Shown: one piece after another, positions 22,307 to 58,240 of the stretch
Position numbering within the stretch: the stretch's first letter is position 1
Layout: the number at the start of each line of letters is the position of its first letter
Source of the DNA: Mytilus californianus
Taxonomy: Eukaryota
Length of the DNA stretch: 64,000 nucleotides
Assembly: GCF_021869535.1 (NCBI RefSeq)
Contig: NW_026262734.1
Coordinates: 40,024,487-40,088,486, forward strand
Direction: 5' to 3'
Position numbers and translations under genes: made by a program
Notes under the pieces: generated by a model
Seen by the model: only the letters and a program-made list of their open reading frames with translations
What the model was told of the DNA's origin: nothing
Databases searched by the model: none

Positions 22307-24045
22307 TATACAACCGCAAAAAAATTTTGTGGTCGTATATTGGTTAAGGTTAAGGAATTAGTTTATGGATCTCTCTGACATTGTACCAAAGGGTTACATA
22401 CCACAAAGGGAATGCTGGGATTGATTTTGGGGGTAATTGCCTCAAAATTTTGGGAACAAGGGGCCAAAAAAGGGGCAAAAAACAAGCATTTTTCTAGTTT
22501 CATGACAATAACTTGTGTGTAAGTGTATAGATCTTTCTGAAATTGTACTACAAGGTTCCATATCACAAAGGAAAAGCTTGAATTGAGTTTGGGGGTAATT
22601 GCCCAAAAAGTTTAGGAATAAGGGGCCAAAAATAAGCATTTTTCTAGTTTCCAGACAATAACTTGTGTTCAAGTGTATGGATCTCTCTGAAATTGTACTG
22701 CAAGGTACCATACCACAAAGGAAAGGCTTGGATTGATTTTGGGGGTAATTGTCTCAAAAGTTTAGGAATTAGGGGCCAAAAAGGGGCAAAAATCAAGCAT
22801 TTTTCTAGTTTCAGGACAATAACTTGTGTGTAAGTGTATGGATCTTTCTGAAATTGTACTTCAAGGTTCCATATCACAAAGGGAATGCTGGGATTGATTT
22901 TGGGGGTAATTGCGTCAAAATTTTAGGAATTAGGGGCCAAAAAAAGGGCAAAAAACAAGCATTTTTCTAGTTTCATGACTATAACGTGTGTTCAAGTGTA
23001 TGGATCTTTATGAAATTGTACTACAAGGTTCCATATCTCAAAGGGAATGATGGGATTGATTTTGGGGGTAATTGTCTCAAAATTTTTTATGAATTAGGGG
23101 CCAAAAAAGGGGCAAAAAACAAGCAGTTTTCTAGTTTCATGACAATAACTTGTGTGTAAGTGTATGGATCTTTCTGAAATTGTACTACAAGGTTCCATAT
23201 CACAAAGGGAAAGCTGGAATTGAGTTTGGGGGTAATTGCCCAAAACATTTAGGAATAAGGGGCCAAAAAGGGCCAAAAATAAGCATTTTTCTAGTTTCCA
23301 GACAATAACTTGTGTTCAAGTGTATGGATCTCTCTGAAATTGTATTACAAGGTACCATACCGCAAAGGGAATGCTGGGATTGATTTTGGGGGTAATTGCC
23401 TCAAAAGTTTAGGAATTAGGGGCCAAAAAGGGGCAAAAAACAAGCATTTTTCTAGTTTCAGGACAATAACTTGTGTGTAAGTGTATGGATCTTTATGAAA
23501 TTGTACTACAAAGTTCCATATCACAAAGGGAAAGCTGGGTTTGAGTTTGGGGTTAATTGCCCTTAACGTTTAGGAATTAGGGGCCAAAAAGGGCCAAAAA
23601 TAAGCATTTTTCTAGTTTCCAGACAATAACTTGTGTTCAAGTGTATGGATCTCTCTGAAATTGTACTGCAAGGTACCATACCAAAGAGGGAAGGCTTAGA
23701 TTGAGTTTGGGGGTGATGAATCATAAGGGGGTTCAAAAAATTTGGGGGGAGGGATTTTTTTTTCCTTTTTTTTTCTTTAAAATTTTCCATTTTAAATTGG
23801 TTATTTCTGATTTATATGTAAAAGCAAATAATAATGATATGGTTTGAATAGGTCAATTAATAATTTATAAGTTCTTAGACCACATTCATTCTGTGTCAGA
23901 AACCTATGCTGTGTCAAATATTTAATCACAATCCAAATTCAGTGTGTATCAAGCTTGAATGTTGTGTCCATACTTGCCCCAACTGTTCAGGGATTCGACC
24001 TCTGCGGTCGTATCAAGCTGCGCCCAGCGGAACATTTTATTTTTT
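22307..24045 (-). mobile_element. Composite hairpin-ended element (Helentron/HINE-like), copy E3, inverted orientation
   Basis: Hairpin tatacaaccgcaaaaaaattttgtggtcgtata at 22307..22339. About 8 tandem ~160-bp units at 22360..23720 in reverse complement. Poly-G/T tract. Terminus ...ccccaactgttcagggattcgacctctgcggtcgtatcaagctgcgcccagcggaacattttatttt at 23990..24045. Confidence 0.75.
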
Positions 24046-28849: not shown

Positions 28850-29800
28850 TATACGACCGCAAAAAAAATTTTGGGATCGTATAATGGTATCATGTCGTCG
28901 TCCGAAGACACATTGGTTTCCGGACAATAACGTTAGTTTAAGTGAATGGATCTCTATGAAATTTTTTAAGAAGGTTCAATACCACAAAAGGAAGGTTGGG
29001 ATTGATTTTGGGGATGATGGTCCCAACCGTTAAGAATTTAGGGGCTCAAAAGGGGCCCAAAACAAGCATTTTCTAGTTTCAGGATAATAACTTGTGTATA
29101 AGTATTTTGATTGCTCTGAAATTGTACCACAATGTTTAATACCACAAGTAGAAGGTTGGGATTCATTTTAGGGGTCATGGGGCCAACAGTTTAGGAATTA
29201 AGGGCCAAAAACAAGCATTTTTCTAGTTTCCAGACATTAACTTGTGTGTAAGTGTATGGATCTCTCTGACATTGTACCACAAGGTTCCATATCATAAAGG
29301 GAAGGCTGGGATTGAGTTTGGGGTTAATTGCCCAAAACATGTAGAAATTAGGGGCCAAAAAAGGGCCAAAAACAAGCATTTTTCTAGTTTCCAGACAATA
29401 ACTTGTGTTTAAGTGTATGGATCTCTCTGAAATTGGACTACAAGGTTCCATACTTCAAAGGCAATGCTTCGATTGAGTTTTGTGGTTATTGCTCCAAGGG
29501 GGGTTTCAAAAAGTTGGGAGGGATTTTTTAAGGGATTCATATTTTTTTCAAAATTTTTCAAATTTCAAATTTTTGAAAAGTTTCAAGAACAAATCTTCAA
29601 TTGCACAGTATTGCGCAATAGATTTGTAAGATCTTTGACCACATTTATTTTGTGTCAGAAAACCTATATTATGTCAGAAATTTGATCACAATCCAAATTC
29701 AGACAGTATCAAGCTTGAATATTGTGTCCAAATTTGCCCCAACTGTTCAGGGTTCGACCTCTGCGGTCGTATCAGGCTGTGCTCAGCGAAGCATTTTATT
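28850..29800 (-). mobile_element. Composite hairpin-ended element, copy E4
   Basis: Hairpin tatacgaccgcaaaaaaaattttgggatcgtata at 28850..28882 followed by gtcgtcgtccgaagacacattggtttccggacaataac. Four ~160-bp units. A 35-bp satellite fragment. Terminus ccccaactgttcagggttcgacctctgcggtcgtatcaggctgtgctcagcgaagcattttatt at ~29740..29800. Confidence 0.7.
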
Positions 29801-30108: not shown

Positions 30109-30925
30109 TCGTATATTGGTATCACGTCGGCGTCAGCGTCGTCCGAAGACATTTGGTTTCCGGACAATAACTTTAGTTTAAGTGTATGGATCTCTTTGAA
30201 ATTTAAAAAGGTTCAATACCACAAAAGGAAGGTTGGGATTGTTTTTGGGGGTGATGGTCCCAACCGTTTAGGAATCTAAGGGGCAAATGGGGCAAAAACA
30301 AGCATTTTTCTAGTTTCAGGACATAAACTTGTGTATAAGTATTTTAATTGCTCTGAAATTGTACCACAAGGTTCAATACCACAAGTAGAAGGTTGGGATT
30401 CATTTTGGGGGTACTTGCCCAAACCGTTCAGGAATTAGGGGCCAAAAAGGGTCTAAAACAAGCATTTTTCTAGTTTTCAGACAATAACTTGTGTTTAGGT
30501 GTATGGATGTCTCTTAATTTGTACCACATTTTAATTTGGGGGGGGAGGGGGGGGTCCATTTTTTCCCCTCAAGATGAAAGAAACTGTCAATTTTCCAAAG
30601 GAAAAAATTTGGAATCACAATTTATTTTGCTAATTCTTTGTAAAAAGTCTGAAAACAGATTTACTAAGTATTGGGCAACAGCACAGTGTATTGCACAACA
30701 TCAAGAAATCTTCAATTGAATATAAATTCAAATCATACAACCAATTTCAAGTTCTTTGACACATTTATTCTGTGTCAGAAACCTATAATGTGTCAAATAT
30801 TTAATTACAATCCAAATTCAGACCTGTATCAAGCTTGAATATTGTGTCCATTTTTGCCCCAACTGTTCAGGGTTGGACCTCTGTGGTCGTATCCAGCTGC
30901 GCTTGGCGAAGCAGTTTATTACACA
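30109..30925 (-). mobile_element. Composite element, copy E5, truncated at hairpin end
   Basis: Starts tcgtatattggtatcacgtcggcgtcagcgtcgtccgaagacatttggtttccggacaataac without the hairpin. Three ~160-bp units. G-rich tract at 30535..30560. Terminus gttcagggttggacctctgtggtcgtatccagctgcgcttggcgaagcagtttatt. Confidence 0.65.
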
Positions 30926-31398: not shown

Positions 31399-31538
31399 AT
31401 GTCCGCACCAAGGAGATCAGCAGATGAGCCTATTTACAGAATACCACCATATTACTTTCTACATGTATTGGACCAAAATCTTAACATCACAAGACTAGAG
31501 ATAGGTCCACAGACCTTCATTAGACAGGACAATGAAAG
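31399..31538 (+). CDS. MVP: Major vault protein, coding exon 1 (start codon)
   Basis: ATG at 31399; [46 protein letters not shown](R) aligns to human MVP N-terminus [36 protein letters not shown]; donor AG|gtaagg at 31539. Confidence 0.85.
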
Positions 31539-31938
31539 GTAAGGACTGTTTCTATAGAATGCTTCCATGTTACCTCATTACCTCCTACTCATCTTGGACA
31601 TGTTTGATCAGAACCTTAACATTACAGAACTAAAAAAAGGTCCATAGACCTTTCTTTATAAGGCAGGCCTTTAATTGGTAGGGCCATGGAAGATAATTGG
31701 ATGTAATCACTACTAGTGTTCATTATATACAATTATTCTGGATATTATTTTGCCGTTTTTAATTCACATGAACAAAGAACTTTTGTTAATAATCAAAATT
31801 ATATTTTGAGTTTCTTTACATGTTTAAAGTAGTTAATCATGCTTACGGTATAGACCATTATACCCAACTCTTTCATTTCTCTTAGCAATTACTGTAATAT
31901 GGAGAGTAAAACGTTTACTAATGTGTTGATATTTACAG

Positions 31939-32134
31939 AGTGGTATATGGACCAGAGCGTATGATCACAGTACCCCCAAGGCATTATTGTATCATAGAAA
32001 ACCCAGTACTGAGGGACAAAGAAGCTAAAGTTGTCTTTGATGAAAGTGGACAGGCCAAACTTGTACATGCTGACCAAGAGATAAGATTGGCACAGGATCC
32101 TTTTCCTTTGTACCCAGGGGAAATACTGAAACAG
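31939..32134 (+). CDS. MVP: Major vault protein, coding exon 2
   Basis: Acceptor atttacag|a; split codon AG|A=R then [65 protein letters not shown] (human [12 protein letters not shown]...[19 protein letters not shown]); donor cag|gtatac. Confidence 0.9.
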
Positions 32135-33069
32135 GTATACCACATCTTCCTATATCTATATATGATTTACCAATATGCTGGGCTTTGTTTACATGTATCA
32201 TATTGGAACCTTACTGGTATATATGTATATATGGTCAAATATATTGAGAGGAAATCCCAATTGTTATAGAGGTCATTAGGGTTAATGTCAAGTCATAGAT
32301 ACTAGAAATATACCAAAAATGTGCAGAAAAGTCAGTCAAGGTATTTTGTTTATTGCAATCTAACATATGATCATCACTTATAATGAGGAGAAGTCTGCTT
32401 TTAATTTTGTGTTCACTACATCTAGAATTCATCTGCTGCTCATGTGATAATGTTATAACATTGTCTTTGGAAATGTTCGAAGATATAGTTTGAATGAAAT
32501 CTGATGAAATTGGCTATTTTAACTTTTAACAGTCATGCTGTTGTTATATATACAGTAGAAAATTAGACAGGATGTAGAAAATAACATTTGTAAAATAAGA
32601 AATGAAAAGGAAGTAATCTGAAGTTTACAAGGTCTTGGTTTTATCTTAAATTTACTCAGCCAGTACAGGTAACATTTAAAACTGGTCTATTAAATCAACA
32701 TTGATCATATATAACAAGGAAGTAAGATGTCATAGATGTTTTGAATTGATACCAAATACCTTTAAATGTCTTCTCAAAATTGAATTGACATGTTTGATAG
32801 TTAAACTATTTACTTCAAGGTTAAGACTGTATGTTTTAAATCTTTCGATTTACATGTATTTGATCTTCACCACAAATATGAATTGAACTTATATGAACTT
32901 TTTAGACTTTTGCCTCAAAATCTATTACAAGCCAGTCCTTAGGTTGGAAGCAAAAACATTGATTATCTTTCTTGTTGTTTAATGGCTGTGAACATGGTGA
33001 AAGCCCATTTATACAGTATTTACCATATTAATGGTTGGTAAATGATTAGGATTGAAGGTGAATGCATCC

Positions 33070-33326
33070 TATTTGATTATCTCCTCAATTTGTAGTAGGT
33101 TTTATCACCCTTGAACGTGATAACAGCTAATTTTCACCTTTATTATTTATAGGATGTAACCCTCTAAAAGTGCTAGCAGCTGAATTGATTAACTCCCTTG
33201 TTAATAATAGGTTATAAAACCCCTAAAGTGGTAGCAGCTGATTTGATTAACTTCCTTGTTAATAATAGGTTATAAAACCCCTAAAGTGGAAGCAGCTAAT
33301 TTGATTATCTCCCTTGTTGATTATAG
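33070..33326 (+). repeat. Tandem array (~58-bp unit x5) duplicating the exon 3 acceptor and exon start; four upstream decoy acceptors
   Basis: Units ttgattaac(t/c)cccttgttaataatag|gttataaaacccctaaagtgg(t/a)agcagctga; last unit is the functional acceptor. Upstream copies contain in-frame TAG (gtg gta gca in the real exon becomes g tgg tag in the copies) and a 59-nt frameshifting offset. Confidence 0.85.
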
Positions 33327-33677
33327 GTTGTAACCCCCTTGAAAGTGGTAGCAGCTAACTCAGCTCTTCGGCTCAGAGCTATTTTAGACTTTGAAGATGA
33401 TGATGAGGAAAAGAGAACAGCTGGGGATGAGTGGCTATTTGAAGGACCAGGAACATATATCCCAAGGAAAGAGGTTGTTATTGAGGAGACTGTCAGGGCC
33501 ACAGTTATTAGACCTAACCAGGCCATCCGATTGAGGGCCAGGAAGGAGACCATTGACAGACAAGGCGTTGCTAGGGTAACTGGTGAGGAATGGCTGGTAA
33601 AGAAGACCGGAGCTTACCTCCCTGGAGCTTATGAAGAAGTCGTAGATGTTGTCAACGCTTATGTCTTAACAGATAAG
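33327..33677 (+). CDS. MVP: Major vault protein, coding exon 3 (two vault repeats)
   Basis: Acceptor gattatag|gttgta; [117 protein letters not shown]; donor aag|gtaaag. Confidence 0.9.
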
Positions 33678-34048
33678 GTAAAGTGACTGTATGAGAAAGC
33701 GAATAAAAACAAAAATAATGGTTTTTTTGTTGGAACAAGGAAGTAAAAAAGTAACATAATGTATATGTAATAGTATATTTTTGCTTTATGGTGTCGACAA
33801 CAACTTTACTTAGGTCTGACTCTTTGAAATTTCTGCATTATGTTTTAAATAGATTACAAGACAACTGATGTAAATTTAAAAAAGGCTTTCTGATATCCAA
33901 AAGATGGAATTATATCTAATGCATGTATTTAAAACAAAAACAACATGGAAAATATAAAGAGCATATGAAACAAAAAATAATGTACCCCTTCAATTGATGC
34001 TTATCAGATATATATATGTTTGAAGGAATTTTTTTTTCACATTTGCAG

Positions 34049-34174
34049 AAAGCTCTTCATATGAGATCATTGAGAACATTTAAAGACGACTTTGGTGTAA
34101 CCAGAAAGAATGGAGAGGAATGGTTGATCAAAATGACAGACACAGAGACACACATACCTAATGTGTATGAAGAG
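34049..34174 (+). CDS. MVP: Major vault protein, coding exon 4
   Basis: Acceptor catttgcag|aaagct; KALHMRSLRTFKDDFGVTRKNGEEWLIKMTDTETHIPNVYEE (human [42 protein letters not shown]); donor gag|gtatgt. Confidence 0.9.
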
Positions 34175-34309
34175 GTATGTACCTTACTGGTGTAATAATA
34201 AACACACATACCTAATGTGTATGAAGAGGTATGTACCTTACTGGTGTAATAATAAACACACATACCTAATGTGTATGAAGAGGTATGTACTTTACTGGTG
34301 TAAAATAAT
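34147..34309 (+). repeat. Tandem array (54-bp unit x3) duplicating the exon 4 3' end and donor site
   Basis: aacacacatacctaatgtgtatgaagag|gtatgtaccttactggtgtaataata x3. Use of a downstream copy would insert 54 nt containing an in-frame TAA. Confidence 0.85.
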
Positions 34310-34780
34310 AGATAAATGAGGTAGCCATATGTTCTATACAATCAATGTTTACTTACTGTACATGTCCACAAATGGGATGTTTTTCATTACTGTAAACCAG
34401 CTAATAAAAGGGAGCGATTTATATTTTCGAGAAGAAAAATAACAGGAAAAAGTGTCAAATTGGTCAAACTTACTCAAAGTTATATAGAAAATGGGAATAA
34501 AAATTGTGCAAAATCTGATTAAAAATGACAAATGCTTTTAAAAAAACTATCCTATCTGTGAAATAAGTTGGTTACATTATTCTTGTTTTAATCTCTATAA
34601 TCTAAGTTTTGTTAATAACCATACTTGGAACCCTGCATTGAACATTTTTAATAACAATAATTGGTAAGGTAAAGACAATTGATTTATAAAAATTATTAAT
34701 GAAGAAATCTTCGTTTTATGGAACTATACTTAAAAGTCTGGCTGCTAACTCTTAAAGGACCTACTTTAATTTTTTCTCAG

Positions 34781-34891
34781 GTCGTCGGAGTAGTGAATAT
34801 TACCACACTAACTAGCAGACAATACTGTATCATCCTTGATCCTTCAGATGAACATGGCAGACCACAACTTGGTAGAAAGAAATTAGTCAAG
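34781..34891 (+). CDS. MVP: Major vault protein, coding exon 5
   Basis: Acceptor ttttttctcag|gtcgtc; VVGVVNITTLTSRQYCIILDPSDEHGRPQLGRKKLVK (human [37 protein letters not shown]); donor aag|gtatgt. Confidence 0.9.
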
Positions 34892-36039
34892 GTATGTGAA
34901 CATTTTTTTCATGAGAAATAACTCTTTTGAAAAACATCCAGAGTAAGCTGTATTAAATCTTACAGTTTAAATATGTTATAAAGAGATTGCTTCTTCAGCA
35001 CTAGTCGAAAGAACTGACTAAAGAATGTTAAATGTAAATACATTTACATGTATTTTCATTGCATCTAATTTTTCTTATTTTGTTAGCCTCAGCGTGTATT
35101 TATTTTCTAGTAGTATATGATTATATATATTTATTCAATTATGATAATATTCAATGACTATTTTTATACGACCGCAAAAAAATTTTTGTGGTCGTATATT
35201 GGTATGACGTTGGCGTCGTCGTCGTCCGGCGTCGTCGTCGTCGTCGTCGTCCGGCGTCGTCCGAAGACACATTGGTTTTCGCACTCTAACTTTAGTTTAA
35301 GTGAATGGATCTTTATGAAATTTTACCACAAGGTTCAATACCACAAAAGGAAGGTTGGGATTGATTTTGGGGGTTATGGTAATAACAGTAAAGGAATTAG
35401 GGGCCAAAAAGGGGCCAAAAATAAGCATTTTTGTAACTTCCAGACATAACTTGTGTGTTAGTGTATGGATCTCTCTAACATTGTACCACAAGGTTCCATA
35501 TCACTAAAGGAATGCTGGGATTGATTTTGGGGGTAATTGCCTCCAAATTTTAGGAATTAGGGGCCAAAAAAGGGGCAAAAAACAAGCATTTTTCTAGTTT
35601 CATGACAATAACTTGTGTGTAAGTGTATGGATCTTTCTGAAATTGTACTACAAGGTTCCATATCACAAAGGGAAAGCTGGGTTTGAGTTTGGGGGTAATT
35701 GCCCTAAACGTTTAGGAATTTGGGGCCAAAAAGGGGCCAAAAAACACATTTTTTTCTAGTTTCCAGACAATAACTTGTGTTCAAGTGTATGGATCTCTCT
35801 GAAATTGTACTGCAAGGTACCATACCACAAAGGGAAGGCTGGGATTGAGTTTGGGGGTGATGAATCATAATGGGGGTTCAAAAAATTTTGGGGGGGGGAT
35901 TAATTTTTTTTTCCTTTTTTTTCTTTTTTTCCTTTTTTGTTTCTTTTAAAATTTTCCATTTTAAGTTGGTTATTTCTGATTTATATTTAAAATCAAATAA
36001 TAATGATATGGTAGGAGATACACACCAAACAGGACGTGT

Positions 36040-36265
36040 AAATTATTATATAATAAGTATTGTGCAATAGCAAGAAATTTTCAATTGCACAGTATTGCAC
36101 AATAGCAAGAAATCTTCAATTGCACAGTATTGCGCAATAGCAAGAAATCTTCAATTGCACAGTATTGCGCAATAGCAAGAAATATCCAATAGCACAATAT
36201 TGCGCAATAGCAAGAAATTGTCAATTGTACAGTATTGCGCAATAGCAAGAAATATTTAATAGCAC
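36040..36265. repeat. 35-bp satellite (caattgcacagtattgcgcaatagcaagaaatctt) x6 inside E6
   Basis: Unit contains palindromes caattg and ttgcgcaa; same satellite x12 at 53035..53460 and fragments at 29590 and 60900. Confidence 0.85.
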
Positions 36266-36299
36266 AGGATTGTGCAAAAGAAGATACTTCCTATAAATT

Positions 36300-37470
36300 G
36301 CTTATTTCTTGACCAATTTCAATGGGGTTTTATTCTTGATTTCATGGGGTTCTTTAATATGCTGAATCTAACCGTGTATTTAGTTTTTGGATTTTGGGCC
36401 CCGTTTTTAAATTGGTCCACATTGAGGTCCAAAGGGTCCAAAATTAAACTTTGTTTGATTTCAACAAAAATTGAATATATGGGGTTCTTTGATATGCTGA
36501 ATCAAACCATGTATTTAGATTTTTGATTTTTGGGCCCCGTTATCAACTTTGTCCACATTGTGGTCAAAAGGGTCCAAAATTAAACTTTGTTTGATTTCAT
36601 CAAAAATTGAATTATTGGGGTTCTTTGATATGCCGAATCTAACCGTGTATTTAGATTCTTAATTTTTGGTTCCGTTTTCAAATTGGTCTACATTAAGGTC
36701 CAAAGGGTCCAAAATTAAACTTAGTTTGATTTTAACAAAAATTGAATTCTTAGGGTTCTTTGATATGCTGAATCTAAACATGTATTTAGATTTTTGATTA
36801 TGGGCCCAGTTTTCAAGTTGGTCCAAATCGGGGTCCAAAATTAAACTTTGTTTGATTTCAACAAAAATTGAATATATGGGGTTCTTTGATATGCTGAATC
36901 TAACCATGTATTTAGATTTTTGATTTTTGGGCCCCGTTATCAACTTTGTCCACATTGAGGTCAAAAGGGTCCAAAATTAAACTTTGTTTGATTTCATCAA
37001 AATTTGAATTATTGGGGTTCTTTGATATGCCGAATCTAACCGTTTATTTAGATTCTTAATTTTTGGTTCCGTTTTCAAATTGGTCTACATTAAGGTCCAA
37101 AGGGTCCAAAATTAAACTTAGTTTGATTTTAACAAAAATTGAATTCTTAGGGTTCTTTGATACGCTGAATCTAAACATGTATTTAGATTTTTGATTATGG
37201 GCCCAGTTTTCAAGTTGGTCCAAATCGAGGTCCAAAATTAAACTTTGTTTGATTTCAACAAAAATTGAATATATGGGGTTCTTTGATATGCTGAATCTAA
37301 CCATGTATTTAGATTTTTGATTTTTGGGCCCTGTTATCAACTTTGTCCACATTGTGGTCAAAAGGGTCCAAAATTAAACTTTGTTTGATTTCATCAAAAA
37401 TTGAATTCTTGGGGTTCTTTGATATGCTGAATCTAACCATGTATTTAGATTTTGGATATTGGACCATAAT
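36300..37470. repeat. ~133-bp satellite with 397-bp higher-order (3-unit) periodicity, x9
   Basis: ggggttctttgatatgctgaatctaacc(a/g)tgtatttagatttttgatttttgggccccgtt...tccaaaattaaactttgtttgatttcaacaaaaattgaat. ORFs 36659..36964 and 37056..37361 are near-identical, 397 bp apart. Same satellite in reverse orientation at 10620..11100 and at 53520..53830. Confidence 0.85.
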
Positions 37471-38328
37471 AGGTGAATGTCCAATTTAAAATTTTTAAGT
37501 TCTTAGACCACATTCAATCTGTGTTAGAAACCTATGCTGTGTCAAATATTTAATCACAATCCAAATCCAAAGCTGTATCAAGCTTGAATGTTGTGTCCAT
37601 ACTTCCCCCAACTGTTCAGGGTTCGACCTCTGCGGTCGTATCAAGCTGCGCCCTGCGGAGCATTTTATTTAACTGTGCTGTGGGAACTGTGAAAATAATG
37701 AAAACTTGTAGTGCACTGGAAAATTATAAATACATTTGAAATTCTACACTATTTTTAGGTTGGAATATGATGTTTCTCTAATGTTTGTGCTATTTTCACA
37801 TTTCTTGAGCAGTGTGAGAAAAATATTTCTCCTCACTAGTGAAATATCTGTTCTCAGCAAATGATTGGTCGAAATTTAATTATGACGTTAAATTTTTCTT
37901 CATTTCTTCTGAATTTCCTATTGTGACGTCATGAAAAAGGGCAACCATGCCTGATGACGTCACGTATAAAGAACACAACTTTCTGCAAATCTTTGAAAAG
38001 GAAGGATTAAAATCATCAGAGAAACAGATTCCACCACTATAACTCGTGTATTACGATATTTCTCCACTCTCAACAGTTAAATTTAAATATTTAAAAAGCT
38101 TGGCAAGCCTCGCGCTTTAAATATTAAAATTTAACTGTCTCGAGTGGAGAAATATCGTAACACACTTATTGCAGTGATGGAATCTATATTTCTTAAATTG
38201 ATAAAAAGAAGTTTCGATAGCTGAAAGTTCATAATTTTTTTTTTTCAACAAGGGTCAATTTCTTCTCTTTATGATGTAGAGATAAATATTTGATAACAGT
38301 ATAACTGATTTAAATGTATTTTTGATAG

Positions 38329-38454
38329 GGAGAGTGTTCCTTCTTTTTGTTACCTGGAGAACGATTTGAGAGAGGAATCCAGAATGTCTACGTACTTGGA
38401 GAAGATGAAGGTGTTATACTGAGAGCTACAGAATCATTTAAAGATACAGATGCT
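38329..38454 (+). CDS. MVP: Major vault protein, coding exon 6
   Basis: Acceptor tttgatag|ggagag; GECSFFLLPGERFERGIQNVYVLGEDEGVILRATESFKDTDA (human [33 protein letters not shown]...); donor gct|gtaagt. Confidence 0.85.
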
Positions 38455-40567
38455 GTAAGTTTCCTGCATATTAAAAAAAAAGTATCCGGAAAGTCATAAA
38501 TTGAAATTTGTGTTGTGGAGTGTAGGTATTCCAGGTAGCTGGCAGATATCTACATGAATTCTACATCTATAGCATAAATTCCAGTTGTTTGTGCAAAATT
38601 AACACAGTATAAGTCATCTGTGTATGATACAGTTTGTCAGTTACTCATAGATGGACATGTTGTTATCAGGTCAACCAATTTTCTTCAATCAAACTGCCCC
38701 TGAAATATCTTAAATACATAAAACCAAAATTAAGAAAAGACAAAATCAGATAATAGATTGAATTTCATGGATATTTTCTTTCTAGGTATCTTGACGCTGA
38801 CCATTTCTATATTTCATTCATGCCTTCTTTGCATTGTTAAATAAAAATTGCAGTGAATTTGAAACATCTGTGAAATTGACGAAACTTCTGTCATAATGCA
38901 AAGTGAATCTTTTGAAGAAATCTTTTAAGGTTTAGAAATTTTTTATTTTATTGATCAATGAAGGGAATCTGGTTTGCTTTGCAATAAGAAAAATAGCATT
39001 GCTTAGAACAGAAGACAACAGGACAAACTACTTATATTGTGTTGCAACTTTTTGTATAAAAGATAAAGGTAGAAAAAGGAGCAAGCCTTGACTATAGTTA
39101 AGCATTTTTAATAGGTGGAACTTTTAACTAAGTACACAATGCAGTGAACATATAGTTCAACCTTATGTCAAGGATTAGTTTGTTTTGTTGAATAATGTTT
39201 ATTTACTCTGCATGTTTATTTTTTGTTGTATAAGATTTATTTACTCTGCATGATAATCCTGTCCGTCTCTCTGCACAATTTACTGTTTCAGAATCTAAAG
39301 GACTCTGGGTAATGTAATTGTTCATATACACCTTAGTGAAAATTACATTACACCATTGGTTGGATATCTATTATTTAAGAGATAACCAAATAGAATATGT
39401 TGTCGTAAACTTTTTAAAATATTACCCAGAATGCATTATGGGTAGATTCTGAAATGGTAAATTGTCAAATAAATAAAATCATGCATGAAAGTCTAAAGTA
39501 GGCAATAGAGTAAGTGAATTTTACTTTTTTGTTCATTTCAGACTGACGAAAAAGTAAGTCAACAAATGCAATTCGTGCTTGCAGTGCTTTCAGTGCTTTG
39601 TTCTAACAGTTATTCTTGTAATACACATTTCTTATAACATGTTTGAATAACGCCCTGCTTAAGAATGGGATATGCTGCCTACAATTGTATTGTGTTTTTA
39701 ATGTGTTTGTGTGTCCTTCACTCCCTGTTTTGCAAATGCAATGCATTTTGTTCAGTGTTTGTTCTTATCATTCTAGGAAATCTTAGAAGTGAATAGATGT
39801 ATTTTATACTTTTTATTGAAAACTAGGTTTTTTAAGAAGAAAAAAAAAGCTTCTGTTAATGAAGATATTAAAACAATTTTGAACATATTTGATAATGGTA
39901 AGTTTGTAGATTTCCTAAAATGATGTGTGATTATTCATCTGTTGGGCCATAATAACATAGAAAAGTGCTAGATGAAAAGATGTTATAAATATTAACTAAA
40001 GATTTCTTACAATTTGTGCTTCAATTATATAAGTTTGTTTTATATTAGGTTCATATTTCAACCTCAATTCCATTGGGAGACTCCTATACTGTTTATACAA
40101 AAGTAAGTCATAGTGACTTAGCTTTATAAATTGATGTTTTGAAAGTTCAGTGTTGTTTGAATATTTTATATGTTCTTGTTTTTTAAGTTTTTCTTAAAAA
40201 GATATTCTCCAATCAAAATATTTGAATCAAGTTATTCTCAATACTAAATTCCTGACATACTTATATGCTTGTTTCAAATGGTGTTATCTCATAGTTGTAT
40301 CTCGTTAGCCTTTAATGTCCAGAATATGCCTGTAGTATTTGCCACTGGAAATTAAGGAGCCATTAAAAATAATTATGATATTGATTAAATTAATTTGATG
40401 CCAGGGTGTTAAAAGAAGACAGAAAATTGTTGGCTATAAATCTATTCACTGCAAAATATCCAAAACAATAGAATATTTGTGCAAATGGAAAAAAGTCATG
40501 ACAACCATTAGGGAAATGTTTAAATTCTTAGTTCATTGCACATGTAATAGAAAGGCAATGGCGGATC

Positions 40568-40587
40568 CTGGGGGGGGGGGGGGGGTT
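40568..40587. repeat. Homopolymer G~20 followed by T10 in MVP intron 6
   Basis: cctgggggggggggggggggggttctttttttttttg. Confidence 0.85.
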
Positions 40588-41332
40588 CTTTTTTTTTTTG
40601 ATGATCAATGCTTTTGAAAGGGGACATAGGGTTGGAAACCCCTTTTATAAATGGCTGGATCTGCCCCTGAAAGGACATCATGACCACTTTCTCTGTCAAC
40701 TTTTAAATACAAAGATTTTTTAGATTGATGTAATTAGAGATGCACATTGTAGATGCTTTCATTGCAGTTTATTATAATGAAATCAGTTTGCTTGGTCATA
40801 ACTTCTTGATTCATACTTGATATTTACATTTCCAAGACTAATAACACAGTTTATAATATCTATTCATTCATATCACATTTTCTCAAACTCCTTTACTTAG
40901 ATACCTGTTTTCTTTGTACTAAATCTGCATTTGAGGTTTGATTTATTTTGAATTCACAACAAAGCCTACATGTAACATCACAGGTCTTCTTGTTCCATGA
41001 GAGAAACATTTTTTTTTATATTTTCATATTTTCTATGTTGTACAAGTTCATCTTTTTTTTATATTTTTATTTTGTAATTTGCTTTTCCTAGTACATGTAT
41101 GTAGTATGCTAGTATTTACTTCAGTTGTTACATATACATTTATAAGTTTTGCATTTAAACTTTTAAATCACTGTCAGTTTAAGTCTTCAAATGTCAATAG
41201 TTGTGATATCTTTTAGTTTGATACCCCATTCCATTTCTTTTCATAATGCCTGAACAAGATTTAAAAAATTAAGATTTCTGAAAGAGAATTTTTATGACAC
41301 AAAATTATTTATTATCAAAATTTTTATTTTAG

Positions 41333-41482
41333 GATGTTGGAAGGAAACCAGGAGATAAGTGGATGATCCGGGGACCAGCAGAATATGTACCTCCTGTGGA
41401 GGTTGAGGTTATCATGAAGAGAACTGCAATCCCATTGGATGAAAATGAGGGTATCTATGTCAGAGATATCAAAACTGGAAAG
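41333..41482 (+). CDS. MVP: Major vault protein, coding exon 7
   Basis: Acceptor tttttattttag|gatgtt; [50 protein letters not shown] (human [45 protein letters not shown]); donor aag|gtacga. Confidence 0.9.
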
Positions 41483-41901
41483 GTACGAGTTACAAGTACT
41501 AAAATCAAAACATGAAATGAACATTAATATTTTTTCAAAAAGCCCATACTGCAGTAAGGTAGCCAATCTTTTTTGAATAAAAATGTTTTGCAAAAATTTA
41601 GTTCATTTTCAAAAGAAGCATTTTTTATGAATTTTGTTAAACAAAAACAACCTGTTACATATCTGAAAAATTTTGGTAAATGAATGCTTTGTGAAAGTGG
41701 GAATCTTTATATTGACGTAAAAAAACAATTTTATATGTATCCAAGATTTGTTGTCCTTTAGGTGAAAAACAAATATTCTGGATATATGATGATTTTGAGA
41801 ATAAAGTTAACTTTTAGATTGGAACACCTCAAATCACAATTTGATATTGTCTTTTTCTTTTGTAAGTTTTTGATTAGGATTACAATCATAATATATTTTA
41901 G

Positions 41902-42140
41902 GTCAGAGCTGTTACTGGAGAAACATATATGTTGAACCAAGATGAGGAATTGTGGGCCAAGGAACTTCCTCCTGCAGTCGAGACCCTTCTGGCTCAAGGA
42001 AAGGACCCTATGGCTGACAGGAGTGACAGGTCCAAATCTAGTGATGCATCCAAACCACGTGACAAAACTCGTGTTGTCACATTCAGAGTTCCACACAATG
42101 CTGCAGTACAGATTTATGATTATAAAGAAAAGAAAGCCAG
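41902..42140 (+). CDS. MVP: Major vault protein, coding exon 8
   Basis: Acceptor atattttag|gtcaga; [79 protein letters not shown](R); donor ccag|gtaaat, phase 2. Confidence 0.9.
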
Positions 42141-43127
42141 GTAAATATTGTTTCTTAGTCTGTGTGTACATTCCAGTAACCAACAGCCTATGATCAGGAT
42201 CAGGTCAGTCATATCAGGCCTAATGGTCTAAGTAGTTCAAATAATTTGGATTCATAAATTTTTTGAGGGTATCAATTTTCGTTGATTATGGAATATTTGT
42301 ATTTTTCATGTATATATGATTTAATGGTTTAACAAAAGTTTGCATACAAGCCTATAAAACTTTTCACTTTGTTGAACAGTTAAATTCATGGTTCACTTGT
42401 ACCGAAGAAATCCCATGAAAATAGGTATCCAACAAACCGTGATAAAACCACAGTACAGTGATCACGATCTGTCAACTTTGAGGTTACGAGTTCTATCCCA
42501 GTTCGTTCCAAGTGTGTTTTAATTCAATCTTATTTGACAAGGATTGCCATTTTGGTTCCTTCCTGATACTCCAGCTTCCTCCATCAATAAAATTGGCCGC
42601 CATGTGGTTGAAAGTGGCATTAAACACGGATAAACAAACAAACAAACAAACTTCTTTACTTAAGTCTTTGTTACTTTGGACAATAGAATCGGTATGTAAC
42701 CAACAGAATAATTACCGACAGTGCAAGACCCTCATGGGTAGTCGAGGTCGTTAAAAAAAACCTCTTCGTTGCCTCAATTTTTGAGAAATTCCCTTCATTT
42801 AGGATTTTACATCGGTAATTTAATGAATAAAAAATGTTCACTGTAAATTATCAGAAGTAACTAGTGTATGTCTGTTTAAATTGTGATGAGAAAAATGATT
42901 TGTATTATTGTTGATGAAAAAATTATATATTTTCAAAGATTTTTTATTTAATTTTTTATGCAAACTCGACATATAAGCCTGCAGGAAATTTGTATTTTAT
43001 TGAATATGATTTATACTAAATTAATACCCTTGAAATCCTGGAAAATAAGTACCAAACAAATAATATTGATTGCACAGTAGTTATTACTATACAAATAATA
43101 CCACATGTAATTTTCTTTTCATTCTAG

Positions 43128-43470
43128 AGTTGTGTTTGGTCCAGAATTAGTTATGTTGGGTCCAGATGAACAATTCACACAGCTTAGTCTCTCTGGAGGC
43201 AAACCTAAGAAACAAAATGTAATCAAATCATTGTGTTTACTTCTGGGTCCTGATTTCTGTACTGACATTATCACCGTGGAAACAGCCGATCACGCCAGAT
43301 TGTCACTTCAGCTGTCATACAACTGGCACTTTGATATTAAGAATAAAGAAGATAAGACTGAGGCATCCAAGATTTTCAGTGTACCAGATTTTGTTGGAGA
43401 TGCGTGCAAGGCTATTGCCTCCCGAATCAGAGGAGCCGTGGCACAAGTACAATTTGATGATTTCCACAAG
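43128..43470 (+). CDS. MVP: Major vault protein, coding exon 9
   Basis: Acceptor cattctag|agttgt; (R)[114 protein letters not shown], near-identical to human over long stretches; donor aag|gtatgc. Confidence 0.95.
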
Positions 43471-44027
43471 GTATGCTTAATGATATGTACAAGTTGATTT
43501 GAATAGATTCAAGGATTACCACAGAAAAATGTTCAAAGGTGGAACTCATAAAATAATTAGCTTACCTGTTGAGAAAATATTCATCAACATCATACCTTTG
43601 GCAATAATCTTGAATACATATGTATGTATATATATTGTATCTTTATTTTATGAAAAAAACAAAAATAAGCTTAATAATGGTCTTTCAAAATTATACTAAA
43701 GAACTATTGATGCCTGAAATCTAAGGGTGGTCTTAAAAATTCTAGATAGGAGGAGCATCACCATTAAATATCCTTTGGTGATCCATGAGAGATATTGATA
43801 TGTAAGGAACTTTAGGTTTTCAATATGTTTCATCCATATATATTTTTAAGTTTTCCACTGCATTGTAATGAACTGTTTTCTCACCTGGGCATGAATAAAA
43901 TTAATCCTACAAAATGCAAAAAATCAAATAGTATGCTTATAAGATGAAAATAATCATTGCACATTGAAAATTAGATACTGTGGATAGAAAAGATCAGTAT
44001 TTGGAAATTTGCACATTTATATTACAG

Positions 44028-44239
44028 AATTCAGCTAGAATCATCAGATCTTCTGTGTTTGGTTTTGATGACAAAGACAAAGTGCGTGAAGTTTTCAAAT
44101 TTCCTCAAAACAACTTAGTATTCACCAGTATTGATATCCAATCAGTAGAACCTGTAGATCAGAGAACAAGAGATGCCTTACAAAAATCTGTACAGCTGGC
44201 CATTGAAATCACAACAAACTCACAGGAAGCTGCTGCAAG
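44028..44239 (+). CDS. MVP: Major vault protein, coding exon 10
   Basis: Acceptor atattacag|aattca; [70 protein letters not shown](R); donor gcaag|gtaggt, phase 2. Confidence 0.9.
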
Positions 44240-44400
44240 GTAGGTAACTCTATAGAAAATCTGTACAGCTGGCCATTGAAATCACAATAAACTCACAAGA
44301 AGCTGCTGCAAGGTAGGTAACTCTACAGAAATCTGTACACCTGGTCATTGAAATCACAACAAACTCACAGGAAGCTGCTGCAAGGTAGGTAACTCTAATT
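44183..44400 (+). repeat. Tandem array (~73-bp unit x3) duplicating the exon 10 3' end and donor site
   Basis: aaatctgtacagctggccattgaaatcacaacaaactcacaggaagctgctgcaag|gtaggtaactcta x3 (copies 2 and 3 slightly diverged: cacaataaactcacaaga, gtacacctggtcattg). Confidence 0.85.
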
Positions 44401-44803
44401 CACATTCAAAATGATGAGTGTAAATGGCGGGACTGTTAGGTTATGAGCTAAAAACATACATGTTTGAGAAAAAGCAATGCATATTTATAACACAAAAAAA
44501 ATTGCCTACTAAATGTTAAAATATAATTCATGAACATTGGCAAAACCACAGATGTTGAATTTGTTTAAACTTGCACATATGATAAATGGTAGGGGGTCCT
44601 GTTCAACATGTGAGGAACCCTTTACATAGTTTGGTTGTTCCTCTGTACGGCTGTCTATCATTTAGATTGTGTCTTTCCAGTAATAAGAATCATATTCTCA
44701 ACATGCTGGGAAGCAATCTGCAGAACACAAAATAATCATTTGTTAGTTTTGAGATATATTTAATGAATATAAATGGGAGAGTTTTATCAATCTGTATTTT
44801 CAG

Positions 44804-45047
44804 ACATGAAGCAGAAAGATTAGAACAGGAAGCCAAAGGAAGATTGGAGAGACAGAAAATTTCAGATGAAGCAGAGGCTGAGAAATCCAGAAAACAATTG
44901 TTAGAATTACAGGCAAACAGTGCTGCAGTAGAAAGTACTGGTCAGGCTAAAGCAGAGGCACAGTCCCGAGCTGAGGCTGCCAGGATTGAGGGTGAGGCAG
45001 CTGTAGACCAGGCCAAACTGAAATCACAGGCAATGAAGATTGAAGCA
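44804..45047 (+). CDS. MVP: Major vault protein, coding exon 11 (coiled-coil cap helix region)
   Basis: Acceptor gtattttcag|acatga; (R)[81 protein letters not shown]; donor gca|gtaagt. Confidence 0.9.
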
Positions 45048-46774
45048 GTAAGTAGAATAGTTTGTTACCCTGTCAGAATATCAATAATTTGTTGCCTGTC
45101 AGAATACTGTTGATTCAGAATGCGTGCATTTTTAATTGTGATTTTTGAAGAATGGACAAAAATGCAAGATTAATTATTGCGATTTGAGAAAAATTTCTTT
45201 AATATATATGTATTAGATATCAGAAGAAAACTGGATAATCAATATTTTATTGTATTCCTGTAATAATGTTATGTGCATTAGCACTCAATCATACTTTATT
45301 TAAATGAAAAGTATTTCAATAAAAGAAGACCTATGAATAAAGATACTACTGAAAATTGTTTCATGAAAAGTTGTCTCAGAAAAAGATTACCAGATTATTC
45401 TAATGCAGACCTCTAGATACATTAACTTTTTTTATTCGAGTGTCACTGATGAGTGTTTTGTAGACGAAACGTGTGTCTGGCGTACAAAATTTCAATCCTT
45501 GTATCTATGATGAGTTTATTGTCCCCTGCTCAAGGATCCGGAAATTTTCCCAAGTCATTTCGGTCATTTTTTTTTGTGATGTAATAATATCGTGATGCAC
45601 AATAATGCATTTTTCTGAGGGTGACAAGTCTTGCACATGGACAAGTAAAGTCCTTTTTTGTGAAGTATTGGGTCAAACAAGTGTAACTGTACCCTGATCT
45701 AACAGTAACAGTGATGTCTCTGAGTTAGAAACTACACGAGGAGACGTTTTGTTGTTGTGTATTGCATCACTGAGGTCGTATGCATAACCCTTTAAATTTG
45801 CATAAAAAATAATATACCGAAAAGTTAACAGTAAAATCAATCTTTCAAATAAGATCATCAATTAACCCATGTTGATCCCCATTTTCCATGCGCAAACTCA
45901 GTAAACATAAATCTATATTTAACAAACGTTGACCAAATCAGCTGATCGATTATAAATGGATTATATGTTTTATTTGGATAAAAATGGACAGATTCTCGAG
46001 TCAACAGTGTTATTTGACTTCTTTAATGAATAAAATAATATCTTTTGGGAAAATCTAGGTCAGAATGGTTAAAACGTTAAATTTGATGCACAGCAAATCG
46101 CCATATTGTTTTTATTGCTTAACAGGTGTTTACAGGTGAGATTTGTGTACATGGCCTTTATGGCTTTAATCAAGACAATAACGACACCCAAGCCGAATTC
46201 AAACTTCCTGGACATTGATTACTATCCTCAAGTGGTGATAATTACTATGTAAACAAACCTAGTGGCTTGAACCCAGACTTACCCCACAGTGTGACTCGAC
46301 AGAGTCCTGTACATTGTTTTCACTTACATTATAGAATAAACAACAGACTAATGATAAATATTATTAAATCACTAACACAAATCAATAAAATTTTTATTTT
46401 GTCTCAAACAAATCTATTTTTCTTGATGAGCTGAAAACAAAAATAAGTTCAAAATGGCGACCGATAAAACCCTGATCTCAATGAAATGACCGAAATTATT
46501 TCTGTAAAAAAAAAAAAAGACCTAAATCCCAATAAATCATTTCGGTCTTTTCAGTTTCCAAATCGGTCATGTCTGGCATTCTGAGTTCTAAGATCAGTGC
46601 CTATCAATTATATTTAAAAGAGTTATTCCCCTTGGAAACATTACCTTGTACTACTTTGGATAGAAAAAATATGTGCAACGTGGGGGACATTAAAACTCTG
46701 TTCCTTTTATATACTTACTATTGATAATGCAAAAAGTTGGTGAGCATATTTAGATTATTGTGTTGACTTTGTAG

Positions 46775-47113
46775 GAGTCTGAATTAGAAAGACTAACACA
46801 GGCCAGAGAAGCAGAACTTAAATATGTTAGAGAGCAGAATGAAATGGAACTTTCCAAATCAAAAGAAATGTCAACCATCGAGACAACAAAATTCAAGAAC
46901 ATGGTGGATGCTATTGGAGCAAATACCTTGGCAACCATGGCATCTGCTGGACCAGACCAACAGGTCCGTATGTTGCAGTCTCTTGGCCTGAAATCCACCC
47001 TAATCACGGACGGTAGCACACCAATTAATCTGTTCAATACAGCTAATGGACTGATTGGAGGTATGATGCCAGCAAAGAGGAGCAGGAGGTCTGATGAGGA
47101 AGACGATGATTAA
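46775..47113 (+). CDS. MVP: Major vault protein, terminal coding exon with stop
   Basis: Acceptor gactttgtag|gagtct; [112 protein letters not shown]; [24 protein letters not shown] is identical to human MVP; TAA at 47111..47113. Confidence 0.95.
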
Positions 47114-49199: not shown

Positions 49200-50060
49200 G
49201 AGGGAGTGAATTGGTTGTCTGACACCTAAAGGCTATCACAGTCCTTGTACCTGGCCAATATTACAAGGTATTTAATGCTATGGCTGTCCCTGTATCTGGC
49301 CAATATAAGCGGGTATATAAATGCTATCACAGTCCTTGTACCTGACCAATAGTACAAGGTGTTTAAAGGCTATCACAGCCCTGTACCTGGCTAATATTAC
49401 AAGGTATTTAAAGGCTATCACAGCCACTGTACCTGGCTAATATTACAAGGTATTTAAAGGCTATCGCAGTCCTTGTACCTGGTCAATTTTACAAGGTATT
49501 TAAAGGCTATAGCAGCACCTGTACCTGGCTAATATTACAAGGTATTTAAAGGCTATTGCAGTCCTTGTACCTGGTCAATTTTACAAGGTTTTTTAAAGGC
49601 TTTCACAGTCATTGTATCTGACTAATATTACCTAGTATTTAAATGTTATCCACAACCCCTGTACCTGGCCAATATTACCGGTACTAGTGTTTAAAGGCTA
49701 TGACAGTCCCTGGACATTATTATCACCAGGTACAATGTACTGTAAATTCAGAAATTATTGCGTGTATTTATTTTTAGCAAATTTGGAATATCAATCATTG
49801 GAATTTCAGAAAGAGCTTCTTGCAGATATATGTATCCAATATTATAATGTGAGTTCTTATTGCGATACTCACCCAGTCGCATTATTCACATTAATAAAAA
49901 CCTTGTAACAATTTCTAAATTTACAGTATTTAAAAAGGCTACCACGGCTCCTGTACCTGGCTAATGTTACCAGGTATTTAAATGATATAATAGTCCCTGT
50001 ACCTGGCCATTAACTGTTTAAAAAAACTATAGCAGACCCTGTACCTGGTCATTTGGGTAT
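49200..50060. repeat. 58-bp minisatellite x~14, interrupted by a MITE; additional diverged units at 48640..48790
   Basis: ggtatttaaaggctatcacagtccttgtacctggccaatattacaa repeated; ctgtacctggc(t/c)aatattacaaggtatttaaaggctat. Confidence 0.8.
49740..49926. mobile_element. Stowaway-like MITE (same family as 14709..14914) nested in the minisatellite, TA TSD
   Basis: TA|ctgtaaattcagaaattattgcg ... caatttctaaatttacag|TA; minisatellite units resume immediately after. Confidence 0.75.
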
Positions 50061-52460: not shown

Positions 52461-54035
52461 ATACTACTGCAAAAAAAATTTTGCGTCGTATAATGCTATG
52501 ATGTCGTCGTCGTCCGAAGACACATTTGGTTTCCGGACAATAACTTTAGTTTAAGCTAATGGATCTCTATGAATTTTTTACCAGAAGGTTCAATACCACA
52601 AAAGGAAGGTTGGGATTGATTTTGGGGGTGATGGTACCAGCAGTTTAGGAATTGGGGAACAAAAACAAGCATTTTTGTAGTTTCCGGACAATAATGTGTG
52701 TGTAAGTGTATGGATCTGTACCACAAGGTTTCATAACACAATGGGAAGGCTGGGATTGAGTTTGGGGTTAAATGCCCCAAACGTTCAGGAATTAGGGGCA
52801 AAAAAGGGGTCAAAAACAAGCTTTTTTCTAGTTTCCAGACAATAACTTGTGTTTAAGTGTATGGATCTCTCTAAAATTGTACTACAAGGTTCCATACCAT
52901 ATAGAGAAGGCTGGGATTGAGTTTCGGGGGGAATTTCTCCAAAAAGGGGGGGGGGTCAAAAAGATTTTTTTTCCAATTTTTTTTTTGGGGGGGGGGGGTT
53001 CATTTTTTTTCTTCAAAATGTTTGAAATTTCAAATTTTTGAAATCTTCAATTGCACAGTATTGCACAATAGCAAGAAATCTTCAATTGGACAGTATTGCG
53101 CAATAGCACAGTATTGTACAATAGTATAGTATTGGGCAAAAGCAAGAAATCTTCAATTGCACAGTATTGCGCAATAGCACAGTATTACACAATAGCACAG
53201 TATTGCGCAATAGCAAGAAATCTTCAATTGCATAGTAGTGTGCAATAGCACAGTATTGTGCAATATCACAGTATTGCGCAATAGCAAGAAATCTTCAATT
53301 GCACAGTATTGCGCTATAGCAAAAAAATCTTCAATTGCACAGTATTATGCAACAACACAGTATTGCGCAATAGCAAGAAATCTTCAATTGCACAGTATTG
53401 CACAATAGCAAGAAATCTTGAATTGCACAGTATTGCGCAATAGCAAGATATCTTCAATTGAAAACAAATACAAATGTTTTAACCAATATCGATGGGATTA
53501 ATTAAGTCTTTAATTTTTGGGGGTTCTAGCCTTGTATAATTTTTTTGGATATTGGGCCCCATTTTTAAATTGTTCTACATTGAGGTCAAAAGGGTCCAAC
53601 ATTAAACTTTGTTTGATTTCATCAAAAACTGAATTATTGCGGCTGTATGATTTGCTGAATCTTATTGTGCATTAAGATTTTTATTATGGGCCCTGTTTTC
53701 AAATAAGTTCATATTAAGATTTGAAGGGTCCAAAATGAAACTTTGTTTGATTTCAACTAAAATTAAATTATTGGTGTTTTTTTATATGCTGAATCTAACC
53801 ATGTTGTTAGATTTTGGATATCAGACCATTCTAGGTAAATTAAATGTCCCATTTCAAATTTTTAAGATCTTTGACCACATTTATTTTGTGTCAGAACCTA
53901 TATTATAAAAATTTGATCACAATCCAAATTCAGACAGTATCAAGCTTGAATATTGTGTCCAAACTTGCCCCAACTGTTCAGGGTTCGACCTCTCGGTCGT
54001 ATCAGGCTGCGATCTGCGAAGCATTTTATTATTGT
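52461..54035 (-). mobile_element. Composite hairpin-ended element, copy E7
   Basis: Degenerate hairpin atactactgcaaaaaaaattttgcgtcgtata. Three ~160-bp units. G/T homopolymers at 52925..53010. 35-bp satellite x12 at 53035..53460. ~133-bp satellite at 53520..53830. Terminus ccccaactgttcagggttcgacctctcggtcgtatcaggctgcgatctgcgaagcattttatt. Confidence 0.75.
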
Positions 54036-57999: not shown

Positions 58000-58240
58000 G
58001 TTTTCAAGTTGTATTTTAATACATATTACTAATCCCATCATACATTGAAGTGCATTAACGTAACAATAACACAACATAATTCAAGTTGTATTTTAATACA
58101 TATTACTAATCCCATCATACATTGAAGTGCATTAACGTAACAATAACACAACATAATTAAAGTTGTATTTTAATACATATTACTAATCCCATCATACATT
58201 GAAGTGCATTAGCGTAACAATAACACAACATAACCGTAAA
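58000..58240. repeat. 77-bp tandem repeat x3
   Basis: ttcaagttgtattttaatacatattactaatcccatcatacattgaagtgcattaacgtaacaataacacaacataa x3. Confidence 0.9.

Follow-up and report, generated by a model that had tools for sequence, protein, structure and literature searches.

Tandem arrays spanning splice junctions in the major vault protein gene of the mussel Mytilus californianus

In the human F7 gene the first element of a 37-bp minisatellite in IVS7 spans the exon 7/IVS7 boundary (Borensztajn et al., 2006; PMC1557585), and the real donor is followed by five to nine identical 5' pseudo-sites, with only the most upstream site being used physiologically (PMC1557585). Here we describe a related arrangement in the gene for major vault protein (MVP) of the mussel Mytilus californianus, which lies in a window of 64,000 nucleotides (the whole stretch analysed: RefSeq assembly GCF_021869535.1, contig NW_026262734.1, positions 40,024,487 to 40,088,486 of the forward strand) of AT-rich eukaryotic DNA that is dense in tandem arrays. 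As in F7, the MVP arrays run head to tail, a terminal unit holds the authentic boundary, the copies carry the splice consensus in units of 30–100 nt and, at exons 4 and 10, the RefSeq product uses the first donor copy. Unlike F7, these two donors have three copies rather than five to nine, in units of 54 and 73 nt rather than 37 bp, and several junctions of one gene are involved, including an acceptor-side array of a kind that F7 does not have. Compared with the variable number of tandem repeats in F7, copy number in MVP differs between species (one, three or four decoys at exon 3, one or three copies at exon 4, and one, two or at least four copies of an array adjacent to exon 11). MVP is a multi-junction, invertebrate case of an arrangement already described for human F7.

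Three other described processes resemble what is seen at this locus. One is microhomology-mediated tandem duplication (PMC8639346), from which most tandem repeats have been suggested to originate (bioRxiv 10.64898/2026.02.28.708716); the exon 4 donor is similar in having a single copy in the sister species, a perfect head-to-tail duplication and then a three-copy array, with short motifs at the unit ends (AACA there, and CTA, a short match, at the ends of the exon 3 unit), although the match spans only 3–4 nt and substitutions that came later have blurred part of it. Introns can be gained, or slide, via tandem duplication of exon sequence with a proto-splice site (Hellsten et al., 2011, PMC3265369; Lehmann et al., 2010, PMC2891723); in MVP too a local duplication copies splice signals and one copy becomes intronic, but the duplicated segment already spans a junction, no intron is new or shifted, and the ancestral junction is still used. 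Finally, bivalves carry dispersed satellite-like arrays of the Helentron/pearl type (PMC7492417), and short tandem arrays, several of them of about 160 bp, are likewise scattered through this window, whereas the junction arrays are locus-specific and consist of exon and intron sequence of MVP itself, not of a mobile element. We regard it as probable that the MVP arrays are locus-specific minisatellites which arose by ordinary local tandem duplication at different times and have been tolerated through the choice of exon-proximal splice sites.

Anatomy and ages of the junction arrays

The MVP model was built by tblastn with the human protein, after which exon borders were set manually to GT-AG (Table 1). 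When spliced it gives a clean open reading frame (ORF) of 858 aa, the translation of which is identical to the M. californianus RefSeq 'major vault protein-like isoform X3' (XP_052073494.1), so the junctions of the annotated product are those of the model; both lines of evidence bear out the identification of the gene in the initial annotation, which was made from the sequence alone. RefSeq protein isoforms X1–X3 differ only between exons 6 and 7, owing to alternative exons in intron 6. Two such exons with good AG/GT flanks were found there, a 12-nt microexon encoding TDEK (isoform X2) and a 54-nt exon encoding VHISTSIPLGDSYTVYTK (isoform X1), and MVP isoforms of other mussels have a 4-residue insert (PDEK, ADHK) at the same protein position as TDEK. 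The M. californianus annotation also holds a second MVP-like gene (P0123; 860 aa, 92% identical), apparently on the same chromosome.

Table 1. Features of the window. Positions are counted from the first nucleotide of the window. TRF, Tandem Repeats Finder.
Feature	Position	Strand	Units or length	Basis
MVP coding region, 12 coding exons	31399-47113	+	858 aa	tblastn with human MVP, GT-AG refinement
MVP exon 1	31399-31538	+		
MVP exon 2	31939-32134	+		
MVP exon 3	33327-33677	+		
MVP exon 4	34049-34174	+		
MVP exon 5	34781-34891	+		
MVP exon 6	38329-38454	+		
MVP exon 7	41333-41482	+		
MVP exon 8	41902-42140	+		
MVP exon 9	43128-43470	+		
MVP exon 10	44028-44239	+		
MVP exon 11	44804-45047	+		
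MVP exon 12	46775-47113	+		
Old, decayed tandem duplication across exon 1 donor	31461-31680	+	~137 nt	self-blastn, cross-species alignments
Exon 3 acceptor array, four decoy units and real junction	33071-33358	+	spacing 54/58/58/58 nt	TRF (33158-33356, 58 bp × 3.4, 87%), sequence, unit table
Exon 4 donor array	34148-34309	+	three units of 54 nt	TRF (34148-34308, 54 bp × 3.0, 98%)
Exon 10 donor array	44179-44397	+	three units of 73/73/72 nt	TRF (44179-44397, 73 bp × 3.0, 93%)
Tandem array near exon 11 donor	45056-45106	+	26/27 nt	TRF
Microexon in MVP intron 6 (isoform X2)	39542-39553		12 nt	
Alternative exon in MVP intron 6 (isoform X1)	40049-40102		54 nt	
Single-exon coiled-coil ORF	7697-8503	-	268 aa	
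Satellite-like family	12758-13658, 22360-23714, 29053-29497, 30156-30528, 35287-35858, 54526-55868, 61295-61646	both	~160 bp	
Repeat in MVP intron 5	36056-36284		35 bp	
Same repeat, ~17 kb downstream	53048-53460		35 bp	
Locus-specific array	49227-49678		46 bp × 9.8	
Locus-specific array	58003-58233		77 bp × 3, 98%	

Arrays were detected with TRF on the window together with direct reading of the sequence, and the MVP loci of M. trossulus (L010), M. coruscus (L011), M. edulis (L012) and M. galloprovincialis (L013) were compared, using as an outgroup contigs from a mussel outside Mytilus with an MVP of 93% identity (L001–L006 and L014). All 11 MVP intron positions are common to the five Mytilus species; M. 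coruscus is the sister species, with introns about 94% identical to the window, and the introns of M. trossulus are about 80% identical. Each of the 22 MVP junctions was also tested by aligning the exon edge to the adjacent intron, the other introns serving as the null, and this recovered the three junctions flagged in the initial annotation (the exon 3 acceptor and the donors of exons 4 and 10) plus the exon 1 donor. That arrays span the three flagged junctions is confirmed by TRF, by the sequence and by the gene model, and the comparison of orthologous junctions which the initial annotation had proposed, made across four other Mytilus species and another genus, shows that the arrays are not equally old.

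At the exon 4 donor each unit comprises the last 27 nt of exon 4 and the first 27 nt of intron 4, and the sequence GAG/GTATGT (the slash marking the junction) is identical in all three, with exon ends at 34174, 34228 and 34282; the real junction (34174/34175) lies in the first unit. Copies 1 and 2 are identical, whilst copy 3 (98%) has its own substitutions and an indel, and the alignment of exon edge to intron scored 54 against a null maximum of 20. The same donor region is single copy, with colinear flanks, in M. coruscus, M. trossulus, M. edulis, M. galloprovincialis and the outgroup contig L014, and the exon 4 array is, as far as these loci indicate, specific to M. californianus and the only young event.

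The exon 10 unit consists of the last ~58 nt of exon 10 and the first 15 nt of intron 10, the units being 93–96% identical and the donors spaced by 73 and 72 nt (score 107 against a null maximum of 27). AAG/GTAGGT is identical in all three copies, with exon ends at 44239, 44312 and 44384 and the real junction (44239/44240) again in the first unit; the earlier placement of this border is corrected here, in that exon 10 ends at 44239 and the donor is hence AAG/GT. M. coruscus also has three copies, and variants are common to the two species in a mosaic fashion, which suggests exchange between copies. M. trossulus and M. galloprovincialis each retain a single decayed copy, offset downstream by precisely one unit and thus still in register (P = 0.003–0.005), with a weaker alignment in M. 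edulis (P = 0.06), and the duplication is at least as old as the ancestor of M. californianus and M. coruscus, and probably older. In the outgroup, too, part of the end of the species' own exon 10 is repeated in intron 10 (score 34, null maximum 20), including a 17-nt exact copy (aatcaccacaaattctc; L014 12232–12250) about 55 nt into the intron, which is preceded by ttttacag and has states unlike the Mytilus exon. Since this copy matches the exon of its own species over 17 nt, either gene conversion or independent recurrence is needed to account for it. At some such positions, comparison by eye suggests agreement between the L014 copy and the decayed decoy of M. trossulus.

At the exon 3 acceptor the order is reversed, each unit beginning with ~32 nt similar to the first nucleotides of exon 3 and continuing with a polypyrimidine tract of ~26 nt ending in AG. 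Five such tracts, alike but not identical, end at 33098, 33152, 33210, 33268 and 33326, the last being the real acceptor, with the real junction (33326/33327) in the last unit (score 34 against a null maximum of 21). Unit identities are graded from 75% to 91%, with the oldest unit upstream, and the number of decoys is four in M. californianus, three in M. coruscus, one (diverged) in the M. edulis complex and one in the other genus; no exon 3 decoy was seen in the contig L007, which is the closest exon 3 relative. Read from these counts, the array is a product of stepwise growth from one to three to four decoys across species.

Two further cases make the picture slightly richer than in the initial annotation. 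Across the exon 1 donor, the exon segment 31461–31517 recurs at 31598–31652 with 77% identity, to be set against the ~80% of introns compared with M. trossulus, and is followed by a degenerate donor, attg/gtaggg, near 31675 (score 50 against a null maximum of 23); M. coruscus, M. edulis and M. galloprovincialis show the duplication as well. By this divergence and species distribution, the exon 1 duplication and the first exon 3 acceptor copy are evidently old and common across Mytilus, the exon 3 copy being found in the other genus as well. The array near exon 11 starts 9 nt downstream of the donor (45047/45048), so that the splice site itself is not duplicated, and has two copies in M. californianus, at least four in M. 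coruscus and one in the M. edulis complex.

Decoy splice sites and their possible use

Every copy keeps its splice-site dinucleotide within an identical or near-identical consensus (unit tables), as the initial annotation had stated, and its further claim that all decoys are non-productive was borne out when each was substituted in silico into the MVP model. A premature stop resulted in every case, the only full-length ORF being that which uses the exon-proximal sites, so a productive mRNA requires splicing at the final acceptor copy and, for each donor, at the first one. Inclusion of 54 or 108 nt at exon 4 gives ...CTLLV followed by an in-frame TAA, the stop that had been predicted for the 54-nt inclusion; inclusion of 73 or 145 nt at exon 10 gives an immediate in-frame TAG; and use of any of the four upstream copies of the exon 3 acceptor leads to a stop within 5–17 codons. 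For the acceptor the predicted frame consequence was correct, but the offset is 58 nt (54 nt for the oldest unit) and not the 59 nt first given.

None of the RefSeq protein isoforms (X1–X3) uses a decoy, although non-productive isoforms would not be annotated as proteins. Whereas the F7 pseudo-sites were studied with minigenes, for MVP we infer from this annotation that the decoys are silent. The extra copies all lie on the intron side, and the spliceosome would use the exon-proximal site, i.e. the first donor and the last acceptor. Transcripts with premature stops are expected to be cleared by nonsense-mediated decay (NMD), and misuse of a decoy, which would create an early stop, would in that way be removed. 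We propose that the arrays are tolerated because the extra copies are intronic and the exon-proximal site is chosen.

Masking of the decoys by RNA structure was considered and rejected, given that the arrays at exons 4 and 10 show unremarkable folding (z-scores −1.68 and −0.20) and that Rfam gives no match at the gathering threshold over the arrays. Recursive splicing at the AG/GT of the acceptor units was also considered; the regenerated donor, CAG/GTTATA, is weak.

An alternative is that the decoys have been kept by selection for a role in splicing, either as NMD-coupled decoys tuning MVP output, a use that the initial annotation had raised, or as a supply of branch points at exon 3. In M. 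californianus and M. coruscus the exon-derived part of the last acceptor unit ends in gcagCTAAT, a consensus branch-site motif derived from the exon codons GCT AAC and situated 28 nt upstream of the real AG, and this motif could favour the real exon 3 acceptor, though as a lead confined to these two species: CTAAT has no counterpart in the M. edulis complex (CAAAT) or in the outgroup, and a branch-point donor was for that reason dropped as the main account of the array. The decoy donor 9-mers are identical to the real ones, and an exon 3 acceptor decoy, always with its AG, is present in five Mytilus species and another genus, both of which would fit a selected function. Nevertheless, the exon-like half of the decoy is only about 69% identical between M. 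californianus and M. trossulus (our own count), no better than the ~80% of the introns, and the contig L007 shows no decoy at all; together with the absence of the exon 4 array from every other species compared and the lack of any RefSeq isoform using a decoy, this leads us to regard selection for splicing as unlikely, and the tolerance of silent copies remains our preferred reading.

Origin of the arrays

In the proposed course of events, local tandem duplication of 54–137 bp would copy a segment that happens to include an exon–intron boundary, and the resulting arrays would then gain or exchange units by slippage or unequal exchange. Arrays borne by transposable elements of the Helentron/pearl type were rejected as a source, since the consensus units of the junction arrays have no other copy in the window (zero other loci, against 9–11 for the ~160-bp family). 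Intron gain by AGGT duplication was also looked for, and no new intron was found among the MVP introns, the duplicated segments spanning pre-existing junctions at positions common to the five Mytilus species.

The initial annotation had offered reverse splicing or retro-insertion of junction fragments as one candidate. Beyond the coincidence with junctions nothing speaks for such an RNA-mediated origin, and it is contradicted by the units themselves, which are contiguous exon and intron, colinear with the unspliced genomic DNA and arranged head to tail at the source locus, so that reverse splicing and retro-insertion are excluded by their anatomy; no exon–exon junction, poly(A) tail or target-site duplication was seen at the units, and a comparable analysis in Drosophila favoured tandem duplication over reverse splicing (PMC2891723). 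We give this origin practically no credence. A spurious expansion of copy number in the assembly is also very improbable. The identity of exon 4 copies 1 and 2, in an array present in only one assembly, is what such an artefact would look like, but substitutions and an indel set the third copy at exon 4 apart, the arrays at exons 3, 10 and 11 recur with their own substitutions in the independent M. coruscus assembly, and copies differing by 4–25% cannot be errors of collapse or expansion.

For local duplication, the single-copy exon 4 region of M. coruscus offers a possible starting point in that AACA occurs on the exon side (gaAACAcac) and again on the intron side (ataACAgg), ~52 nt apart. 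This pair is compatible with a microhomology-mediated tandem duplication giving rise to the exon 4 unit, and is too short for proof. A 7-nt microhomology, ACACATA, was considered for the same array and dropped, being a trossulus-specific insertion and not the ancestral state.

Several points weigh against ordinary duplication with tolerated copies. The exon 4 microhomology is at most 4 nt (3–4 nt) and needs later substitutions in the M. californianus flanks. If units are placed at random, the 11 locus-specific arrays are expected to give 0.24 junction-spanning cases (P(≥3) = 0.0013), and within the gene three of four arrays span a junction (P = 0.0013), the fourth lying 9 nt from one; both of these figures are post hoc, and the gene was selected for its striking look. 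The exon 3 acceptor and exon 10 donor also have exon-edge copies in a different genus. Finally, under a classical AG-scanning model one would if anything expect a preference for upstream copies of the acceptor that have branch sites of their own.

With the looser null of whole arrays placed at random the excess falls to P = 0.03, likewise post hoc, and among the 19 junctions that had not been flagged in advance only one, the exon 1 donor, has an exon-edge copy, where an estimated ~0.6 would be expected from the density of locus-specific duplication. The background load is high: 17.6% of the window lies in tandem arrays with a period of at least 20, 21% of random 100-nt probes from the window have a direct copy at most 400 nt away, and M. 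coruscus MVP carries three comparable arrays deep inside introns. We therefore treat the junction excess as suggestive and not established. The initial statement that three such junctions exceed coincidence is not supported by these figures, with the excess being nominal and post hoc and the hold-out close to background; the idea of a recurring process survives in a generic sense, since ages differ and expansion has continued in the californianus/coruscus lineage, but nothing indicates that the junction itself acted as a template.

A mutational process that favours junctions would make exon–intron boundaries duplication hotspots, for instance through replication problems associated with transcription or splicing. 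Besides the nominal excess, it would draw on the five junction-associated events in one 15.7-kb gene and on the exon-edge copies at the exon 3 acceptor and exon 10 donor of another genus, one of them with species-specific sequence. We nonetheless consider it unlikely, because the hold-out is near background, comparable arrays lie deep in M. coruscus MVP introns, the events date from widely separated times and do not form a cluster, RNA structure at the arrays is not unusual and the gene was chosen post hoc. On the preferred reading of ordinary local duplication, the presence of three or four arrays in one MVP gene would for the most part have three causes, the first a very high tandem-duplication load in the genome. 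A copy anchored to a conserved exon, decaying against a nearly fixed partner, would also be recognisable for longer than a purely intronic pair and is perhaps refreshed by conversion, and the choice of MVP because it is striking would be part of the apparent clustering.

The best argument for either a junction-favoured process or a function of the decoys is the recurrence or persistence of copies at exons 3 and 10 across genera. We allow a small chance that these two junctions, the exon 3 acceptor and the exon 10 donor, repeatedly generate or retain copies of their edge plus splice site across mussel genera, whether as a duplication or conversion hotspot or because the decoys are used, as regulated unproductive sites or branch-point donors.

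Other features of the window and significance

The only other clear gene in the window is the single-exon ORF on the reverse strand, which belongs to no Pfam family and which, on the contigs that carry MVP in M. coruscus and M. edulis, is conserved at 96% and 88%, respectively; Pfam scans of the other long ORFs of the window gave no match. Extending the junction test to this second gene was ruled out, as it has a single coding exon.

Amongst the repeats, the ~160-bp arrays, which occupy a large part of the window, resemble the Helentron/pearl-borne tandem arrays of bivalves (PMC7492417); (CGT)n/(GAC)n and T-rich tracts border some of the copies, and MVP intron 5 contains one. The 35-bp repeat (AGTATTGCGCAATAGCAAGAAATATTCAATTGCAC) adjoins a 135/397-bp array in the same intron, is found again downstream of the gene and recurs in an MVP intron of M. 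trossulus (L010 13657–13744), and is probably part of a composite mobile element. Two further arrays, of 46 and 77 bp, are locus-specific; every copy of the 46-bp unit contains a donor-like AAG/GTATT, and no coding exons were recognised nearby among the ORFs around either array.

If the arrays are products of ordinary duplication, their value is modest: MVP would provide a datable series of junction-straddling duplications that are born, expand and decay whilst a conserved gene is left unharmed, and would add an acceptor-side and multi-junction example to the single well-studied human case of F7. The locus is also a caution for the annotation of repeat-rich mollusc genomes, in which identical decoy sites beside real ones can mislead gene predictors. 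Were the decoys used, the gene would offer four natural competition experiments for the selection of 5' and 3' splice sites in an invertebrate, and if its junctions repeatedly generate or retain copies, MVP would provide a natural model, with several sites, of how one splice site is chosen over identical competitors.

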